In this document: piece after piece, positions 5,188-56,924 of the stretch
How the letters are laid out: every line of letters starts with the position of its first letter
Position numbering within the stretch: the stretch's first letter is position 1
DNA from: an uncultured Blautia sp.
Lineage (GTDB): Bacteria > Bacillota > Clostridia > Lachnospirales > Lachnospiraceae
Assembly (NCBI GenBank): GCA_934372025.1
Contig: CAKROJ010000009.1
Location: forward strand, 760 to 64,759
Direction of reading: 5' to 3'
Length of the DNA: 64,000 nucleotides
Translations under genes and position numbers: made by a program
The notes under the pieces: model-generated
Database searches by the model: none
Seen by the model: only the letters and a program-made list of their open reading frames with translations
Told to the model about the DNA's origin: nothing

Positions 5188-5261
5188 TTTATCTCCTCCT
5201 GAATATATATTTCATAGTGATACCCTACGGATTGCTGCGCAGCACGCTGCTCCCAGAGTAT

Positions 5262-5757: not shown

Positions 5758-5960
5758 CAGCTGAATGAATATATATCCGTGGCAACAGGGCTTCGGATTC
5801 GGTAAGTTCTAAAATGCTTTGTCACTGCTAGAAACATAAATAAAAATTGTGAACTCGCTGACGCTCACACAGCACAATTTTTATTTATAACGCAGTTCCA
5901 AACCATCAAGAACTTGCACAAATCCTGCAGAGAGTTGCCACGGATATATATTCACCAGCT
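5758..5960 (-). repeat. Long imperfect hairpin repeat, copy A (about 200 nt)
   Basis: Perfect 20-bp outer arms GAATATATATCCGTGGCAAC (5767-5786) / GTTGCCACGGATATATATTC (5934-5953). Inner arms ATAAATAAAAATTGTG (5836-5851) / CACAATTTTTATTTAT (5873-5888). The apex AACTCGCTGACGCTCACACAG is the reverse complement of the family loop motif. Confidence 0.85.
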
Positions 5961-6176
5961 GCTTGATATTTACAGAAGTTTCCATAAAATCTATTGTTTT
6001 GAATCATTAGAGTGATGACGCGGCCCGGATCTTGACGGGCCGTGGCCGCATAACGGCGGCTACGCCGCCGCTTTTCTACTACTGATAAAATCAACATGAA
6101 TTAATGTGTGTATGAAAGTAGAATATTGGTGATTATTTTTTTATCCTATGATACAACAATGTCTGGATATTGAAAT

Positions 6177-12609: not shown

Positions 12610-13431
12610 TTAGTATTTCCACGGAATCTTTACACGATAAACTCTTGATAATCCATATGTTTTGTAAGATACACCATAGTTCTTGCTGTAACTTTTAGCC
12701 TGTGCAAAAAGCGGATCATATACCCGGCCATTAATCTCGGCCCATGCATGTGCATTGCGATTGCTCCGCTTTCCATCTGCACATACATAAACTTTTTCAT
12801 ATCCCAGTACTTTTGCCAGATAGGCAAAAGCAGATGCGTCCGCAACACAGTTTCCGCGTCCTCTTTCAAAATGGTCATTTGCATTTACAGCATACCACGC
12901 CTTGCCACCCTGATCAAACCGTCTCCATGTATGATAATATTTGCTCATTACCCAGTCAAAACATACCTTAAGTTTTTGACTTTTGGACATTTTGCTGTTG
13001 GTGATCTTGGCTACAATTTTTCTGGCATTCTGTGATGCGCGGAATTCATTTGTCTCATCTTTATTCAGACGTTTACCATTTGCATCATAATATGCCTTTC
13101 CTTTTTTCCAACCCAGTACTCTGCCATTCTTCTCTATGTAATAAGTAACCTTCTGATATGTCGTATTCTTCTTCTGCATAATTCCATTTTTATTAAAGAA
13201 ATATACAGTTTTACCGATTTTCTGGCGTCCGACAAGATACTTACCGTTTTTAAAATACTTCTTCTGCCCGTTTTTAAGCTTATACCAGCCATTTTGCGGT
13301 ATTTCTGAGGAAGCTGTCGTGCTTTTTGCAGGTGCTGCCTGTACAGCTGTTTCAGAATAAACTGGTGTCAGCAAAAGTGCCGAGCACAATACAACTGCCA
13401 TACATTTTTTGATTTTTTTCATGCTTTTCAT
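12610..13431 (-). CDS. Secreted transglutaminase-like cysteine peptidase-domain protein with putative cell-wall-binding repeats
   Basis: ORF 12610..13458. I chose the ATG at 13431, which follows GGAAGGAG. It has a signal peptide and GW/YF-type repeats (GWYKLKNGQKKYFKNGKYLVG..KTVYFFNKNGIM). The C-terminal core has Cys (GRGNCVADA), His (HAWAEI) and Asp (YDP). Confidence 0.65.
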   Translation of the reverse strand: MKSMKKIKKCMAVVLCSALLLTPVYSETAVQAAPAKSTTASSEIPQNGWYKLKNGQKKYFKNGKYLVGRQKIGKTVYFFNKNGIMQKKNTTYQKVTYYIEKNGRVLGWKKGKAYYDANGKRLNKDETNEFRASQNARKIVAKITNSKMSKSQKLKVCFDWVMSKYYHTWRRFDQGGKAWYAVNANDHFERGRGNCVADASAFAYLAKVLGYEKVYVCADGKRSNRNAHAWAEINGRVYDPLFAQAKSYSKNYGVSYKTYGLSRVYRVKIPWKY

Positions 13432-29589: not shown

Positions 29590-29895
29590 GGTGGGTTGTG
29601 GGGGTAGTTACGGCAGGGGCTTCAAATATATTATAATGTCGATATACGTACAGATACTGATAAACATATGGCTGGCAGACCAGAGCAACGGTCTGCTGAA
29701 CTAACTGCCAACTACGTCTACGCATTCTCTCAACAATAGTCTCGAGAATGAGACTTCGTAGGCAGTGGATTTCATCAGTACCTAAAAGCGCTCTGTAAGT
29801 GTCTGCTGCGCCTATATGTTTACAGTATCTTGTGTATTATCGATATACAGTCGAGGAAAAGAAGCCCCTGCCTGTTTACCGACCCCAAACGCACT
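29590..29895 (-). repeat. Long nested hairpin repeat, copy D (about 300 nt)
   Basis: Arms are GGCAGGGGCTTC (29612-29623) and GAAGCCCCTGCC (29861-29872). The AT-rich second tier is GATACTGATAAACATAT / ATATGTTTACAGTATC. The interior holds sub-hairpins GCAGACC..GGTCTGC and CTACGCATTCTC..GAGAATG..CGTAG. The reverse complement ends ACAGGCAGG...CCTGCCGTAAC, like the 55-kb copies. Confidence 0.8.
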
Positions 29896-29952
29896 GAGCG
29901 AAGAAGTACGTCGCGTGGGCGATGTATCCGCGACAGCAACTTGTGGCGTGTG

Positions 29953-30009
29953 AAAATAATCTGCATTTGTGGGGATCCGCGGATGTAGTCATTTATTTGG
30001 CACAAATTC
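29953..30009 (-). repeat. Single 52-53-bp short-unit repeat (reverse orientation)
   Basis: AAAATAATCTGCA..CGCGGATGTAGTCATTTATT..CACAAATTC is the reverse complement of the GAATTTGTG..GACTACATCC..TGCAGATTATTTT unit type of the 54.8-kb array. Confidence 0.75.
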
Positions 30010-30062
30010 AAGAATGCCTCGGCATTCTTGCTGCGAGATGCGCGTCATGCAATGCATGACAT
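30010..30062 (+). repeat. 53-bp double-palindrome module (copy 1 of 2)
   Basis: AAGAATGCCTCGGCATTCTTGCTGCGAGATGCGCGTCATGCAATGCATGACAT. Its exact reverse complement occurs at 51811-51863. Confidence 0.9.
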
Positions 30063-30101
30063 ACTTCTTCTGCGCATCTCTGCAATCCTGCCGGAGGCTA
30101 T

Positions 30102-30183
30102 ATCAGATGGGGGATTGACTCCCACTACTGATACTGATTTATTGCTCGCAACCTACAGAGGTGGGAGTCATCTCACATCTGAT
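30102..30183. repeat. About 82-nt hairpin repeat (F type)
   Basis: ATCAGATG.GGGATTGACTCCCAC pairs with GTGGGAGTCATCTCACATCTGAT. A homologous, degraded copy lies at 32572-32642. Confidence 0.8.
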
Positions 30184-30201
30184 ATGATCTACTTTGGGCA
30201 T

Positions 30202-30303
30202 AATCGCAGATGCAGTCACTTATTCAGCGCAATTTTTAATCTGCTTTGGGAAGATTCGCGGATGTAGTCATTTATTCAACACAATTTTTAATCTGCTTTT
30301 AAG
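30202..30303 (-). repeat. Two tandem 52-bp short units (reverse orientation)
   Basis: ..CGCAGATGCAGTCACTTATTCAGCGCAATTTTTAATCTGC.. and ..CGCGGATGTAGTCATTTATTCAACACAATTTTTAATCTGC.. are offset by 52 bp. Confidence 0.8.
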
Positions 30304-30405: not shown

Positions 30406-30683
30406 ATCTTGTCTGATATTTCATACACAGACAGAATAAGCCCCATATCCAGATTAAAAACACTCGTGAGTACTGCGTGATGAGATGCAGGCTTAGCTTC
30501 CACCACCAAGCCCACTGTCTGAGCGAAGCGAGTTTGGGCGACTGGTGGATAATAAGCGCATGCATCGAGTAGCAGACGCAGCGGTGTTTTATATCCTGGA
30601 TATGGGGCTTATTATGTCGTATGTATAGATATCACATAAATACTTAATCAAATATCTTGCGTGATATTTCATACACAGACAGA
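30406..30683 (+). repeat. Long hairpin repeat, copy E (30435-30613), bracketed by 30-bp direct repeats
   Basis: Outer arms are AATAAGCCCCATATCCAG (30435-30452) and CTGGATATGGGGCTTATT (30596-30613). The loop motif CTGTCTGAGCGAAGCGAGTT is at 30515-30534. The direct repeats ATCTTG(TC/CG)TGATATTTCATACACAGACAGA are at 30406-30435 and 30654-30683. Confidence 0.88.
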
Positions 30684-32571: not shown

Positions 32572-32642
32572 GATTGACACCCACCACTGATACTGATTTT
32601 TTGCTCGCCACCTACTGAGATGGGTCATCTCACATCTGATAT
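32572..32642. repeat. Degraded copy of the F-type hairpin repeat inside the fab/acc operon
   Basis: GATTGACACCCACCACTGATACTGATTTTTTGCTCGCCACCTACTGAGATGGGTCATCTCACATCTGATAT aligns with 30113-30185 with about 10 mismatches by eye. It abuts the accC stop codon. Confidence 0.8.
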
Positions 32643-51716: not shown

Positions 51717-51810
51717 CACCTCGCGCAATATTACCTGCGAACAGTTACTTAATATTCGATGTATTAGCTACTGTTCATTGACGCATTTCCTCATTTCCTG
51801 TAAGATAAAT

Positions 51811-51863
51811 ATGTCATGCATTGCATGACGCGCATCTCGCAGCAAGAATGCCGAGGCATTCTT
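51811..51863 (-). repeat. 53-bp double-palindrome module (copy 2, inverted)
   Basis: ATGTCATGCATTGCATGACGCGCATCTCGCAGCAAGAATGCCGAGGCATTCTT is the exact reverse complement of 30010-30062. Confidence 0.9.
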
Positions 51864-51907
51864 GAAAAATGTCGCTATTGGCGGCAAGACAAGCCCGGAG
51901 GATTACC

Positions 51908-53116: not shown

Positions 53117-53178
53117 AACAGCAGACAGGTTTCTGTTCTCTCCTTTGAAGCGAATTGAGAATTTGCTATGCAATCTTA

Positions 53179-53208
53179 TTGACGTTTTTCCGGAATCTAT
53201 GGTACAAT
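53179..53208 (+). promoter_or_regulatory. Putative promoter of the MATE gene
   Basis: TTGACG (53179-53184), 18 nt, then TGgTACAAT (53200-53208). Confidence 0.5.
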
Positions 53209-53243
53209 CTGATTACTGTTTACAGGCAGTATTCATTGAGATG

Positions 53244-53265
53244 TTTTGCCATGAATATGACAAAA
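53244..53265. promoter_or_regulatory. Palindrome TTTTGCCAT-N4-ATGACAAAA (candidate operator, second site)
   Basis: One mismatch to the site at 51695-51716. It lies about 40 nt downstream of the putative -10. Confidence 0.35.
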
Positions 53266-53329
53266 TCTCGAGACATAACACAATTTTTCCAAAACATAGT
53301 GTGGACTTTTCTGGTCTGGCCATTTTTCG

Positions 53330-53370
53330 CCACACAATTACCCTTTGCGGTAGTTGTGCGGCATTTTTTT
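53330..53370 (+). terminator. Terminator-like hairpin inside the MATE 5' leader (possible attenuator)
   Basis: CCACACAATTACC ctttgc GGTAGTTGTGCGG (with G-U pairs), followed by CATTTTTTTA. It lies about 60 nt upstream of the MATE start. Confidence 0.45.
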
Positions 53371-53427
53371 ATGTCTGTCGTACACTTTACAGCTGCTTGC
53401 AGACTGCAATTCGAAAGGAGCTTCTTA

Positions 53428-54759
53428 ATGAACGATACATTTATGAAAGAAAAGCCGGTCTTTCCGCTGATCTTATCCATGGCGATGCCAATGGTTATTT
53501 CCATGCTCGTAAATTCTCTGTACAATATTGTGGATAGTTTCTTTGTAGCACAAATCAGCGAAAACGCAATGACTGCACTGTCACTTGTTTTTCCAATACA
53601 GAATTTTGCCAACGCAACTGCAATCGGTTTTGGTATTGGTATCAGTACTCAGATAGCAATTGCGCTTGGTTCAGGCAAAAAAGAAACCGCTTCAAAAGCA
53701 GCTACTCACGGTGTAGTTTTATCTGCTCTTCATGGACTGATTCTGATGATTGGATGTATACTCATCATGCCTGGATTTCTGGCACTTTTTACTTCTGATT
53801 CAGATGTTTGTGATCTTGGAATCCGCTATTCAACAATCGTTTTTCTCTTCGCTATTGTAAATAATATCAACCTTGCTTATGAAAAAATCTTCCAGGGCGT
53901 CGGTAAAATGAAAGTTACTATGATTGGTCTGATGGTTGGATGTATTTCCAATATCATCCTCGATCCTCTGATGATTTTTGGTATCGGTCCATTCCCCGCA
54001 ATGGGAATTGAAGGGGCTGCTATTGCAACCGGACTTGGTCAGGTTTTTAACCTTGTTTTCTATCTGATCGTCTATAAAACACAGTCTCTCCAGGTCAGAT
54101 TAAGCCGGAAATATTTACATCCGGACAGGGCTCTGATCGCCAGATTATACTCTGTTGGCATTCCAGGAGCGCTGAATCTTGCGCTTCCATCTGTGCTTGT
54201 TTCTGCGCTAAACGGACTCCTGGCTGCCTACTCACAAAGCTATGTTGTGATTCTTGGAATCTACTATAAACTACAGACATTTCTGTACCTTCCAGCAAGC
54301 GGAATCGTACAGGGAATGCGTCCAGTGATTGGTTACAATTACGGCGCCGGCGAACATAATAGAGTTAAAAAAATCTACTTTGTTACACTTGGTATGAGTG
54401 GTGTAATCATGCTGATCGGAACCATCATCTGCCTGACAATTCCAGGACAGCTGATTGGAATGTTCACCACCAATCCAGCAACCATCGCTGCTGGTAAGAC
54501 AGCTCTCCGCATCATCTGCGCAGGCTTTCTTTTTTCCTCTGTATCTGTTACTGCCTGTGGCGCTCTGGAAGGACTTGGCCGCGGAGGTGCGTCACTCGTC
54601 GTTTCCCTGTGCCGCTACCTGATCCTCATCCTCCCTGCAGCATTTATCCTGAGTTACTTCCTCGGAGCTGCCGGCGTATGGCATGCCTTCTGGATTGCAG
54701 AGGTTCTCACTGCAGGAGTCTCCCTGCTACTCAGTCGAAAGATTATTCGAACCCGATAA
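53428..54759 (+). CDS. MATE-family multidrug/toxin efflux transporter
   Basis: ORF 53155..54759. The ATG at 53428 lies 7 nt after AAAGGAG and gives a 443-aa, 12-TM protein with ..PMVISMLVNSLYNIVDSFFV.. typical of MATE N-termini. Confidence 0.88.
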   Translation: MNDTFMKEKPVFPLILSMAMPMVISMLVNSLYNIVDSFFVAQISENAMTALSLVFPIQNFANATAIGFGIGISTQIAIALGSGKKETASKAATHGVVLSALHGLILMIGCILIMPGFLALFTSDSDVCDLGIRYSTIVFLFAIVNNINLAYEKIFQGVGKMKVTMIGLMVGCISNIILDPLMIFGIGPFPAMGIEGAAIATGLGQVFNLVFYLIVYKTQSLQVRLSRKYLHPDRALIARLYSVGIPGALNLALPSVLVSALNGLLAAYSQSYVVILGIYYKLQTFLYLPASGIVQGMRPVIGYNYGAGEHNRVKKIYFVTLGMSGVIMLIGTIICLTIPGQLIGMFTTNPATIAAGKTALRIICAGFLFSSVSVTACGALEGLGRGGASLVVSLCRYLILILPAAFILSYFLGAAGVWHAFWIAEVLTAGVSLLLSRKIIRTR

Positions 54760-54795
54760 AAGTTCGACAATCAGATATCTCTCTACATTACATAT

Positions 54796-54832
54796 GGAGT
54801 CAACCATTCCATCCGGTTGACTCTATTTTTTT
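54796..54832 (+). terminator. Intrinsic terminator of the MATE gene
   Basis: GGAGTCAACC attccatcc GGTTGACTC, followed by TATTTTTTT. Confidence 0.8.
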
Positions 54833-54843
54833 ATTTCCGCTTA

Positions 54844-55212
54844 TGCAGATTATAGTTTGCGATATATTTGTGACTGCATTCGCTTTTTCCTCTATTGCGG
54901 ATTATTTTTCCGCCCAAATCATTGACTGCTTTCGCTTTTTCCTCTATTGCAGATTATTTTTTTCGCCAAATTTGTGACTGCATTCACATTTTTCCTCTAT
55001 TGCAGATTATTTTTTCCGCCAAATCATTGACTGCATTCGCATCTTTCTTCTGTTGCAGATTATTTTTTCCGCCAAATTTGTGACTGCATTCACATTTTTC
55101 TTCTATTGCAGATTATTTTTTCCGCCCAAATCATTGACTGCATTCGCTTTTTCCTCTATTGCGGATTATTTTTCCGCCCAAATCATTGACTGCATTCGCT
55201 TTTTTCCTCTAT
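54844..55212 (+). repeat. Tandem array of seven 52-53-bp units
   Basis: Unit consensus: TGCAGATTATTTTTTCCGCCAAAT(TTG/CAT)TGACTGCATTC(ACA/GCT)TTTTTC(T/C)TCTAT. Units start at 54844, 54896, 54948, 55001, 55054, 55107 and 55160. Two variants roughly alternate. Confidence 0.9.
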
Positions 55213-55535
55213 TGCAGATTATTTTCCGCCGCCCTCTTCCACCGTTTATGCTTGCTGTCAACTTACAGGCAGGAGAAATCCCGTGTATGGACAGGAATAC
55301 TCGTGAGGCTTGCGTAATGAGATGCAGGCTAGTTTCCACCATCAAGCCCACTGTTTAAGCGCTAGCGAGTTTGGGCGACTGGCGGATAACAGACGTCTGC
55401 ATCGAATAGCAAACACAGCGGTATTCCACGTCCATACACGGGAACTCCCTGCCGTAAATGATGCCAACACATCCACCCCATTTCCAGATTAATATTTCCA
55501 CCGAATTTGTGACTGCATTCACATTTTTCTTCTAT
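55213..55535 (+). repeat. Composite repeat copy C1: a short unit interrupted by an about 265-bp foldback element (hairpin 55268-55453)
   Basis: The hairpin has GGCAGGAGAAATCCCGTGTATGGAC..GGAATAC on one side and GTATTCC..GTCCATACACGGGAACTCCCTGCC on the other. The loop motif CTGTTTAAGCGCTAGCGAGTT is at 55351-55371. TTCCRCC(G) occurs at both junctions. Confidence 0.88.
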
Positions 55536-55856
55536 TGCAGATTATTTTCCGTCGCCCTCTTCCACCGTTTATGCTTGCTGTCAGCTTACAGGCAGGGAAA
55601 TCCCGTGTATGGACAGGAATACTCGTGAGGCTTGCGTAATGAGATGCAGACTAGTTTCCACCATCAAGCCCACTGTTTAAGCGCTAGCGAGTTTGGGCGA
55701 CTGGTGGATAACCGACGTCTGCATCGAATAGCAAACGCAGCGGTATTCCACATCCATACACGGGAACTCCCTGACGTAAATGACACCAACACATCCACCC
55801 CATTTCCAGATTAATATTTCCACCGAATTTGTGACTGCATTCGCTTTTTCCTCTAT
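55536..55856 (+). repeat. Composite repeat copy C2 (hairpin about 55591-55775)
   Basis: Near-identical to C1, offset by 323 bp, with a few substitutions. Confidence 0.88.
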
Positions 55857-56014
55857 TGCAGATTATTTTTTCCGCCATATTTGTGACTGCATTCGCAATT
55901 ATCCTCAATTGCAGATTATTTTTTCCGCCAAATTTGTGACTGCATTCACATTTTTCTTCTATTGCAGATTATTTTTTCCGCCAAATCATTGACTACATTC
56001 ACATTTCCCTCTAT
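55857..56014 (+). repeat. Three further 52-53-bp short units
   Basis: TGCAGATTATTTTTTCCGCC.. units start at 55857, 55910 and 55963. Confidence 0.85.
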
Positions 56015-56290
56015 TACAGATTATTTTCCGTCGCCCTCTTCCACCGTTTATGCTTGCTGTCAGCTTACAAGCAGGAGAAATCCCGTGTGTGGACAGGAAT
56101 ACTCGTGAAGCTTGCGTAATGAGATGCAGGCTAGCTTCTGCCACCAAGCCCACTGTTTGAGTGCAAGCAAGTTTGGGCGACTGGTGGATAACAGACGTCT
56201 GCATCGAATAGCAAACGCAGCGATATTCCACGTCCATACACGGGAACTCTCTGCCGTAAATAGCACCAACACATCCATCCCATCAAATAT
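56015..56290 (+). repeat. Composite repeat copy C3 (hairpin about 56070-56255)
   Basis: Same structure as C1 and C2 but more diverged (apex CTGTTTGAGTGCAAGCAAGTT). It ends directly at the csoR promoter. Confidence 0.85.
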
Positions 56291-56296
56291 TTCCTC

Positions 56297-56325
56297 TTTA
56301 CAAATACCCTCAGAGGGTATACAAT
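56297..56325 (+). promoter_or_regulatory. Putative csoR-copA promoter
   Basis: TTTACA (56297-56302), 17 nt, then TACAAT (56320-56325). Confidence 0.6.
56304..56320. promoter_or_regulatory. CsoR operator 1
   Basis: ATACCCTCAGAGGGTAT is a GC-cored palindrome of the TACCC-N-GGGTA CsoR type. It lies exactly in the -35/-10 spacer. Confidence 0.7.
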
Positions 56326-56339
56326 ACAATTATCCTAAT

Positions 56340-56356
56340 ATACCCCCACAGGGTAT
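56340..56356. promoter_or_regulatory. CsoR operator 2
   Basis: ATACCCCCACAGGGTAT, 20 nt downstream of operator 1. Confidence 0.65.
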
Positions 56357-56404
56357 TACAGTAATTCACTTCAATCATTCTACCCAACGAAAGGAACCAA
56401 ATCC

Positions 56405-56746
56405 ATGGACAACAATACATCAGTTTCCACACCAGATGCACCGACAACCGCCCCTTGCTCCTGTTGCTCTAAACACACCCACCGCCCGGACTCCGACCGC
56501 AAAAAACTCATCAACCGCCTCAAACGCATTGAAGGCCAGATCCGCGGAATCATCGGAATGCTCGAGAACGACGCCTACTGCAACGACATCCTCATCCAGT
56601 CCGCTGCCGTCAACGCCGCCGTCAATTCCTTCAACAAAGAACTCCTTGCCAACCATATCCGCACCTGCGTGGCACGAGATATCCGCGAAGGCAAAGATGA
56701 GACAATTGACGAACTCGTAACAACCCTACAGAAATTAATGAAATAA
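56405..56746 (+). CDS. csoR: Copper-sensing transcriptional repressor CsoR (DUF156 family)
   Basis: 113 aa. RLKRIEGQIRGI..M.E.D.YC.DIL.Q..AV..A is the canonical CsoR/RcnR helix bundle with Cys/His ligands. Confidence 0.9.
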   Translation: MDNNTSVSTPDAPTTAPCSCCSKHTHRPDSDRKKLINRLKRIEGQIRGIIGMLENDAYCNDILIQSAAVNAAVNSFNKELLANHIRTCVARDIREGKDETIDELVTTLQKLMK

Positions 56747-56752
56747 TATATC

Positions 56753-56924
56753 ATCCTAGTACATCGTTTTCGAAATAACTATACCACTCACTTGTCTGCG
56801 AATCCGATTGCACAGGTCTAAAAGCCTCAGCGTAGCCCGCTACGCCTGCACTTTTTATACCAGCACACTCGAATCCGCATCCTACGCGATTGGTATAGTT
56901 ATTTACGAAACGATGTACTAGGAT
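56753..56924. repeat. 172-bp long hairpin filling the csoR-copA spacer
   Basis: 34-bp arms: ATCCTAGTACATCGTTTTCGAAATAACTATACCA (56753-56786) and TGGTATAGTTATTTACGAAACGATGTACTAGGAT (56891-56924), with 1 mismatch and 1 indel. The interior is imperfectly paired. The apex is GCGTAGC-CC-GCTACGC (56830-56845). Confidence 0.88.

Follow-up and report, generated by a model that had tools for sequence, protein, structure and literature searches.

The DNA upstream of csoR was analyzed in a stretch of 64,000 nt from an uncultured Blautia sp. (contig CAKROJ010000009.1), which is referred to here as the window. A non-coding segment of 1.65 kb separates a MatE-family gene (53155-54759, identified with Pfam) from csoR (56405-56746, plus strand), a metal-sensitive repressor gene (Pfam PF02583, E = 1.9e-31) with copA as the next gene downstream. 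The preliminary description of this DNA had reported that the segment contains three copies of a ~265-bp foldback element lying in an array of short units, and Tandem Repeats Finder, alignment and folding confirmed this arrangement. The left edge of the repeat region is an intrinsic terminator located after the MatE gene (GAGTCAACC...GGTTGACTC followed by a T-run, 54790-54838, read from the sequence), which served as the anchor for the strain comparisons. It is followed, with all features on the plus strand, by block 1 of a 53-bp tandem array (54871-55225, 6.7 units of two alternating subtypes) and by the composite units C1 (55213-55534) and C2 (55535-55855); then come block 2 of the array (55807-56027, 4.2 units) and the composite unit C3 (56012-56294). 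Both array blocks were delimited with Tandem Repeats Finder. C1 consists of a unit start, a ~45-nt leader, a hairpin (55265-55459), a C-rich trailer and a diverged unit start. The hairpins of C2 and C3 occupy positions 55587-55780 and 56067-56261, and the apical loops are found at 55350-55373 in C1 (ACTGTTTAAGCGCTAGCGAGTTTG, with the mini-hairpin form GCGNNAGC), 55672-55695 in C2 and 56152-56175 in C3. The homology of C3 with the other copies stops at ~56294, 3-10 bp short of the -35 element of the csoR promoter, as expected from the earlier placement of the element directly next to it. A promoter scan located this promoter at 56297-56325 (TTTACA-17-TACAAT, 10/12 matches), accompanied by two operator-like palindromes, ATACCCTCAGAGGGTAT (56304-56320) and ATACCCCCACAGGGTAT (56340-56356), the whole spanning 56297-56356.

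Each of C1-C3 includes a ~265-bp element with an imperfect hairpin of ~195-235 nt. In the alignment their mean column identity is 92%, the copies being 92-96% identical (4-8% divergence). The C1 region (55225-55505) folds at -98.4 kcal/mol, compared with -71.8 ± 5.3 kcal/mol in dinucleotide shuffles (z = -5.05; 0/200 as good), and its opposite strand folds at -113 kcal/mol (z = -4.26). A technical artefact, such as a hairpin adapter or a chimaera, was ruled out by the imperfect stems, the 4-8% divergence between copies and the recurrence of the locus in independent metagenome assemblies.

The preliminary description proposed that a miniature inverted-repeat transposable element (MITE)-like foldback had been inserted into one short unit and was later amplified together with the array. 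The amplification was borne out. Tandem Repeats Finder detected a period of 322 bp at 55187-55869 (2.1 copies, 95% matches, score 1257), and the blocks vary between strains. The insertion was not. The evidence offered for it was an 8-bp target-site duplication (TTTCCGCC/TTTCCACCG), which turned out to be part of a longer repeat: at the right-hand end of each insert, the junction CCCCATTTCCAGATTAATATTTCCACCG|AATTTGTG... repeats, in diverged form, the ~24 nt with which a short unit begins (ATTGCAGATTATTTTCCGCC vs ATTTCCAGATTAATATTTCCACCG). Therefore, the claimed duplication is the periodicity of the array. Moreover, the two copies of the claimed duplication differ by ~25%, while the hairpin copies differ by only 4-8%.

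Comparison with other strains, represented by 10 metagenome contigs with an identical CsoR, pointed in the same direction. They have one or two hairpins, against 3 here, and 2-7 short units, although the exact counts are provisional, since the contigs are short-read metagenome assemblies in which repeats can collapse. The copy-number variation that the preliminary description suggested looking for was thus found, but it proceeds by whole array blocks. The csoR-proximal hairpin (C3) is kept in every strain examined, and block 2 of the array is constant in all strains with at least 2 hairpins. Head-to-tail units present in different numbers across strains (1-3 hairpins plus 2-7 short units at csoR, and 2-9 units at a second locus upstream of ftsH) are what defines a variable-number tandem repeat (VNTR), and because the strains differ in the number of whole blocks, the multiplicity is explained by tandem, VNTR-type amplification. 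C1-C3 are tandem duplicates of one composite module and not three insertions.

The locus upstream of ftsH showed what this module is. The preliminary description had noticed that the ends of the element recur in inverted orientation on a copy with an unrelated interior, and ACAGGCAGG...CCTGCCGTAA was indeed found there, in copy D (29612-29872, minus strand), together with the upstream TGCAGATTATTTTC and the downstream C-rich trailer that it has in common with C1-C3. Copy D has the outer hairpin base and the flanks of C1-C3 around an interior that is unrelated to theirs and lacks their apical loop. Next to it lies an array of 52-bp units (29945-30299, minus strand), 70-73% identical to the csoR-locus unit, which ends in GCAGATTATTTTC right before the copy D leader. 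An nhmmer search found the short unit restricted to the csoR locus except for this weak ~70% relative at 29.9-30.3 kb. Read along the minus strand, the order at 29.5-30.3 kb is 52-bp array, GCAGATTATTTTC, leader, hairpin with base ACAGGCAGGGG/CCCCTGCCGTAA (copy D), trailer (CCACAACCCACCCC) and ftsH promoter. The two loci agree in layout, in the position of the junction (GCAGATTATTTTC, leader, ACAGGCAGG) and in orientation relative to the downstream gene. Since the same array-to-hairpin junction is found at ftsH, the hairpin did not insert into a pre-existing csoR array; instead, array and outer hairpin are one composite that occurs twice in the genome, upstream of csoR and of ftsH, in the same orientation to the downstream promoter. 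The module consists of a run of 52-53-bp units, a leader and an outer hairpin (base ACAGGCAGG/CCTGCCGTAA) with a C-rich trailer, with a ~190-nt member of a larger hairpin family nested at its apex. The csoR and ftsH arrays both expand and contract between strains; the latter has 2 units here and 7-9 in other strains. The unrelated interior of copy D indicates that the outer hairpin is a carrier whose apex holds varying inserts. Copy E (30430-30618, plus strand) shows the reverse combination: its core is that of C1-C3 (80-88%), with a consensus loop at 30514-30536, and its outer arms are unrelated yet complementary.

Other repeats were seen in the same neighborhood. A 60-nt sequence, TTCAAGAATGCCTCGGCATTCTTGCTGCGAGATGCGCGTCATGCAATGCATGACATACTT, at 30007-30066 recurs 98% complementary at 51807-51866 (21.7 kb apart) and on contig C70; this dispersed repeat, too, contains a hairpin, but it has no relation to the family described below. 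A repeat of 53-71 nt, GATTGACTCCCACTACTGATACTGATTTATTGCTCGC..., is present at 30100-30170 and 32572-32624, with more copies (89-94% identical) on contigs C16 and C4.

The nested element belongs to a family. According to BLAST and pattern scans, the 2.6-Mb genome contains ~25 hairpins with the loop ACTGTYTGAGCG-N-AGCGAGTTTG, and across the family the apical loop of ~20 nt, YTGTYTGA-GCGNAGC-GAGTT (the tip), is invariant. Family hairpins are 80-265 nt long and of two types. The long type (C1-C3, copy E and others) carries the blocks GCTAGCT...CCACC-AAG-CCC / GGG-CGACTGG.GG...AAATAAGCGCA, and the short type carries CCTGCAGGA..TAGAAGTACTTAGG..TGCGTTG / GCTTTTAGCA..CCTAGTACTTCT..CCGAAGCC. While the center is conserved, the outer 50 nt of the arms show 54% identity between 11 copies, compared with 52 ± 5% when shuffled; within a copy, these outer arms are 70-84% self-complementary in 9 of the 11 copies. 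Family members thus share only the apical loop and a few internal-loop blocks, and their stems are unrelated but self-complementary.

The tip is not limited to this lineage. The exact 22-mer was found at at least 120 loci from many phyla; among the matches listed are Lachnospiraceae, Peptococcaceae, Ralstonia, Variovorax, Xanthomonas, Desulfobulbaceae, Nitrospirales, Bacteroidota, Gastranaerophilales, Parcubacteria, Acidobacteriota and others. Its distribution is patchy, with 11 positive genomes among 401 sampled evenly across the phylum of this genome (2-15 copies each, and 0 with a reversed-pattern control). In Ralstonia sp. 25C the copies number 54, and many of them form inverted doublets. 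In a set of 72,556 plasmids the tip is nearly restricted to the megaplasmids of Ralstonia, small rolling-circle plasmids being without it. The 120 loci have no recurrent neighboring protein family beside the hairpins. A literature search with the loop sequence returned no description, only rRNA and cloning-vector coincidences, and Rfam gave no match at gathering thresholds in the whole window and only chance-level matches at E <= 10 in 54700-56500.

Two further structures were recorded outside the main locus. On contig C6 (21.4-25.6 kb, outside the window), beside a ParA/Soj-like gene, there are at least 4 tandem units of ~800 bp, in each of which a perfect parS site (TGTTTCACGTGAAACA) accompanies one long tip hairpin and a short, inverted one; amplification of the hairpins is therefore carrying a centromere-like site along with them. 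The csoR-copA spacer (56753-56924) is filled by a 172-bp hairpin with 37-nt arms that are 89% complementary, and lacks the tip motif.

Within the species, the hairpins also change at their apices. Hairpin A (5758-5960, minus strand), a short-type member located in the spacer between metG and a histidine kinase gene, is present in some strains and absent from others. Its filled allele reads ATATATAT-CCGTGGCAAC...GTTGCCACGG-ATATATAT, with an 8-bp direct repeat and 10-bp inverted ends, and its empty allele has a single ATATATAT at the center of a ~120-nt palindrome. The alleles are explained equally well by insertion into an existing hairpin apex with an 8-bp duplication or by slippage deletion between the two (AT)4 repeats, which are self-complementary. 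In other strains with the hairpin in the metG spacer, the inner core is 97-100% identical and the outer arms are ~40% different yet paired. At a second short-type element only GTGCATCA is found at the apex here, where other strains have an 84-nt tip-bearing hairpin. Within the species, therefore, the outer hairpins stay constant while the tip modules at their apices are acquired, lost or exchanged, and the apex changes in the metG spacer represent the same relationship as that of C1-C3 to copy D. No variation between 10 strains was seen at hairpin B, which lies downstream of rplA. Among the hairpins compared across strains, hairpin A and the one apical module show presence/absence, and csoR and ftsH vary only in tandem copy number. 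Also in the metG spacer, a 44-nt hairpin-forming segment (atgtaataggaaattactccgtaatattcctatcacacaaaaa) is present on the metG leader side (~5200-5260) in 6 of 10 other strains and absent here, and the length of a GC-rich double hairpin at 6010-6075 differs from strain to strain.

What remains constant in these elements is the loop, and its variants reveal its structure. In the central GCGNAGC, N can be any base or two bases (TC, TA, CA, GC, CT, AT, TT); one copy has a compensating G:C pair inserted (GGCGAAGCC) and another has the motif replaced by GCACC-GTAA-GGTGC. The free N, the compensating pair and the replacement stem indicate that the loop center is a small stem-loop flanked by GA...GA. 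Kink-turn and hammerhead cores were considered for the loop and rejected by inspection, because key positions do not fit. The sequence GCGNAGC/GCGNNAGC has been described as an 'extraordinarily stable' DNA mini-hairpin, which accommodates this freedom of N and is known at the priming sites of the single-stranded DNA (ssDNA) phages G4, St-1 and alpha3, at RSF1010 ssiA and in N4 promoters (PMC13037366).

A search of papers with a 12-mer of the loop returned cloning-vector sequences and led to ColE1, and three replicons known to use PriA, phiX174, ColE1-type plasmids and pAMbeta1, were then checked for the core. The word RAGCG-N-AGCGMR occurs only once in phiX174 (2356, plus strand; 0.02 expected) and in the ColE1-type plasmid pECO29 (2965; 0.01 expected), and one of its two occurrences in pAMbeta1 is at 2911 (0.11 expected). 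In phiX174, GACC-AAGCGAAGCGCG-GTAGG lies on the viral strand within the small hairpin of ori(-) (2353-2373), and AGCGNAGCG is counted once, at 2357, against 0.16 expected on both strands. A saturation-mutagenesis preprint reported 16 detrimental mutations in this small hairpin, which adjoins the PriA-binding hairpin. In more than 2,100 records of ColE1-type plasmids, GACC-GAGCGCAGCGAG-TCAGTGAGCG is found on the displaced strand ~130 nt downstream of the RNA II end (AGCGNAGCG once in pECO29, 0.12 expected), and p15A-like plasmids carry the core variant with N = T. The tip matches ColE1 at 16 of 20 positions, including an exact 13-mer. In ColE1, extension by Pol I from ori exposes the primosome assembly site n'-pas/ssiA (PMC3167613). 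In pAMbeta1, CAGTGA-GAGCGAAGCGAA-CACTTG is located on the displaced strand ~180 nt downstream of the ori core TGCCATTACATTTAT (AGCGNAGCG twice, 0.85 expected), and a PriA-dependent ssiA is known downstream of ori (PMC5703833). The core word is therefore common to phiX174, pECO29 and pAMbeta1, and N is free both in the tip family and in ColE1/p15A. The strand is also that expected of a single-strand initiation (ssi) site in the phage and plasmid cases. Three inovirus-like prophage lineages have the motif on the strand of the phage genes (3/3), and the gene strand of inovirus-like phages is the packaged strand.

The word was also met in other replicons. The second copy in pAMbeta1, GAGCGTAGCGAA (12999-13010, minus strand), is ~30 nt upstream of the mobQ relaxase gene and could serve as an ssi, near oriT, for the strand that is transferred. 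In one group of phages, comprising a viral contig and ~45 others similar to it, the tip word is located within a gene for a 356-aa lambda-O-like replication protein (..NSLRSNK..), beside ATCTATAA iterons and with no long hairpin, which suggests that it is used at a phage theta-type origin.

On balance, the csoR locus is a tandemly amplified composite that holds a nested member of a cross-phylum hairpin family, and the members of this family are probably ssDNA hairpins with a primosome-assembly-like loop. The functional form would be the hairpin on ssDNA, whose loop would display a GA-clamped GCGNAGC mini-hairpin, the core word of PriA-dependent priming sites. Because the core of the loop is the word found at these sites, the loop is most likely a recognition signal for the host priming or primosome machinery, probably for PriA. 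Of the restart proteins, PriA alone is conserved throughout the bacterial phyla (PMC5778457), and priA is present in 7 of 7 tip-positive genomes tested; the universality of PriA would explain the invariance of the loop across phyla. The hairpins themselves would not act as regulatory RNAs of the host but would behave as patchy repeats, selfish or neutral, which lodge in the tips of other palindromes. If they influence csoR at all, the influence would be a secondary one, such as shielding from matE read-through or a changed DNA structure upstream of the promoter.

The likeness to PriA-dependent (phiX174-type, n') sites, such as phiX174 ori(-), ColE1/pMB1/p15A ssiA and pAMbeta1 ssiA, consists of a hairpin, presumably single-stranded in the family as it is at the known sites, with the same core and a free N; each of the replicons has one copy of the word at the expected place and strand. 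However, the known sites are single copies by a replicon origin, whereas the family has 2-54 chromosomal copies with no replication strand bias, much longer hairpins (150-265 nt) and an additional invariant 5' YTGTYT in the loop. Several observations weigh against the interpretation of the loop as a priming signal. What the loop has in common with the phage and plasmid sites is only its core of ~12 nt, to the exclusion of its 5' TGTYT part. Chromosomal copies have no bias with respect to replication by local GC skew (9 against 11) and are not beside the origin. Their orientation with respect to genes is random as well (31 sense and 37 antisense at gene ends; 21 vs 16 in the Firmicutes loci). 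This absence of orientation bias makes a host role in lagging-strand priming unlikely. In other genomes the tip strand has more G-U than A-C mismatches (341 vs 212), which mildly favors an RNA. Finally, the loops of C1-C3 depart from the family consensus by 1-2 bases (1 change in C1, 2 in C3), and these particular copies may be decaying or under relaxed constraint.

C1-C3 are on the C-rich strand, the leading-strand template. The plus strand is C-rich throughout, and by GC skew the whole contig replicates from right to left; the csoR-copA, CLC-channel and pyruvate kinase genes (51-62 kb) are then head-on to replication.

The single-strand origins ssoA, ssoU and ssoW of rolling-circle plasmids and integrative and conjugative elements provide another comparison. 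They too are imperfect hairpins of 150-300 nt with a conserved loop element, and act only as ssDNA. The CS-6 element of ssoA, TAGCGT/A, resembles nAGCGA in the tip. The ssoW origin has been reported to contain a primosome assembly site (PMC5703833). Unlike these origins, the tip is almost confined, among plasmids, to the Ralstonia megaplasmids mentioned above.

An alternative that we consider unlikely is that the hairpins are transcribed structured RNAs, either REP/ERIC-like stabilizers or insulators of mRNA 3'-ends or a protein-binding non-coding RNA, with the loop as an RNA-protein site. The conserved internal loops alternating with covarying helices do resemble a structured RNA, the excess of G-U mismatches in other genomes agrees with it, and 8 of the 9 gene-end-proximal copies in this genome share their orientation to the upstream gene. 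However, overall orientation to genes is random, G-U and A-C mismatches are nearly equal in this genome (39 vs 42, no excess), and Rfam offered no match even at E <= 10. The dominant GNA triloop of GCGNAGC is a hallmark of the DNA mini-hairpin (PMC13037366), and the same motif is met again where ssDNA is primed and, in filamentous phages, on the strand that is packaged. C1-C3 are not followed by a T-run and are thus not intrinsic terminators.

The MITE-like proposal, i.e., a non-autonomous foldback inserted in one short unit with an 8-bp duplication, then amplified and mobilized in trans, is improbable. It was correct about the amplification with the array, and the family resembles MITEs in being foldback-forming, non-coding and, as is typical of mobile elements, multi-copy and patchy in distribution; the presence/absence of hairpin A, with its 8-bp flanking repeat and 10-bp inverted termini, would also fit. 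The slippage deletion accounts equally well for the empty allele of hairpin A, and the unit-start repeat at csoR and the recurrence of the array-hairpin junction at ftsH argue against a true target-site duplication and insertion. Across the family the center is conserved and the ends are not, the reverse of a MITE; only C1-C3 and copy D share ends, there are no family-wide terminal inverted repeats and, unlike MITEs, the elements nest at the apex of other palindromes. The genome-wide BLAST that the preliminary description had recommended returned other hairpins only, and no insertion sequence (IS) with matching ends (ACAGGCAGG.../...CCTGCCGTAAAT) that could be the parent. The search for a partner transposase, also recommended, found none, with no common neighboring protein in the 120 loci and no co-occurrence of Y1/RAYT genes with the family.

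It is very unlikely that array and hairpin are a host cis-regulatory module (iterons, weak tandem promoters or a structural insulator) tuning csoR-copA and ftsH. Each of the two composites immediately precedes a promoter, both in the same relative orientation, five units contain a weak promoter-like TTCACA-16-GATTAT directed towards csoR, and 9 promoter-like sites were counted against 4.5 ± 2.3 expected. Nonetheless, these matches are weak (9/12), no binding protein was identified and the copy number varies freely across strains. Same-genus species keep the CsoR operator and promoter layout and regulate csoR without the array; one of them retains the MatE-csoR synteny with a spacer of ~240 nt.

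Like REP/BIME/REPIN (repetitive extragenic palindromes and their assemblies) and ERIC sequences, the family consists of intergenic, multi-copy, gene-less palindromes at gene ends, with inverted doublets in some lineages. REPs, however, are palindromes of 20-40 nt with a 5' GTAG head and form lineage-specific families, whereas these hairpins are 5-10 times longer, lack GTAG, conserve the center and not the arms, and have an identical loop across phyla. Mobilization of the hairpins on ssDNA by a RAYT (Y1 HUH) transposase is the least probable explanation: many Ralstonia copies are inverted doublets 215-300 bp apart, and in one genome (G060, contig C3, 739.5-755.5 kb) two tip hairpins in direct orientation enclose a RAYT-like Y1 gene of 160 aa, but PF01797 is found in 12/14 tip-positive and 18/22 tip-negative genomes and is missing from the tip-positive G131 and G146 (4 and 13 copies), a Y1 gene adjoins a tip hairpin in 1/12 genomes, and the only such genes in the present genome are two ordinary IS200-type genes, all Y1-transposase matches being on other contigs. 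The G060 contig has five tip hairpins within 14 kb around rplKA-nusG and mgtE, the only RAYT-tip association seen.

Beyond the locus itself, we propose, tentatively and with more doubt than confidence, that long chromosomal hairpins capped by a PriA-type loop could be an unrecognized, cross-phylum class of gene-less selfish DNA, which would spread as folded single strands, recruit the restart primosome and colonize the apices of palindromes. Spread by apex colonization would explain the nested hairpins with unrelated but always paired stems. For annotation, the present results warn that tandemly amplified hairpins should not be called independent MITE insertions. Should the loop prove to be a primosome-assembly signal, the priming sites of phiX174, ColE1 and pAMbeta1, to which, to our knowledge, no strong consensus has been attributed, would share a definable sequence word, and this priming word is scattered by dozens in the chromosomes of some species from many phyla. 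It would then offer a handle on what PriA, or another conserved priming factor, recognizes, and would bear on the origin and nesting of gene-less palindromic repeats. These hairpins are also a source of rapid strain-level variation beside promoters, here those of the copper-stress operon csoR-copA and of ftsH.

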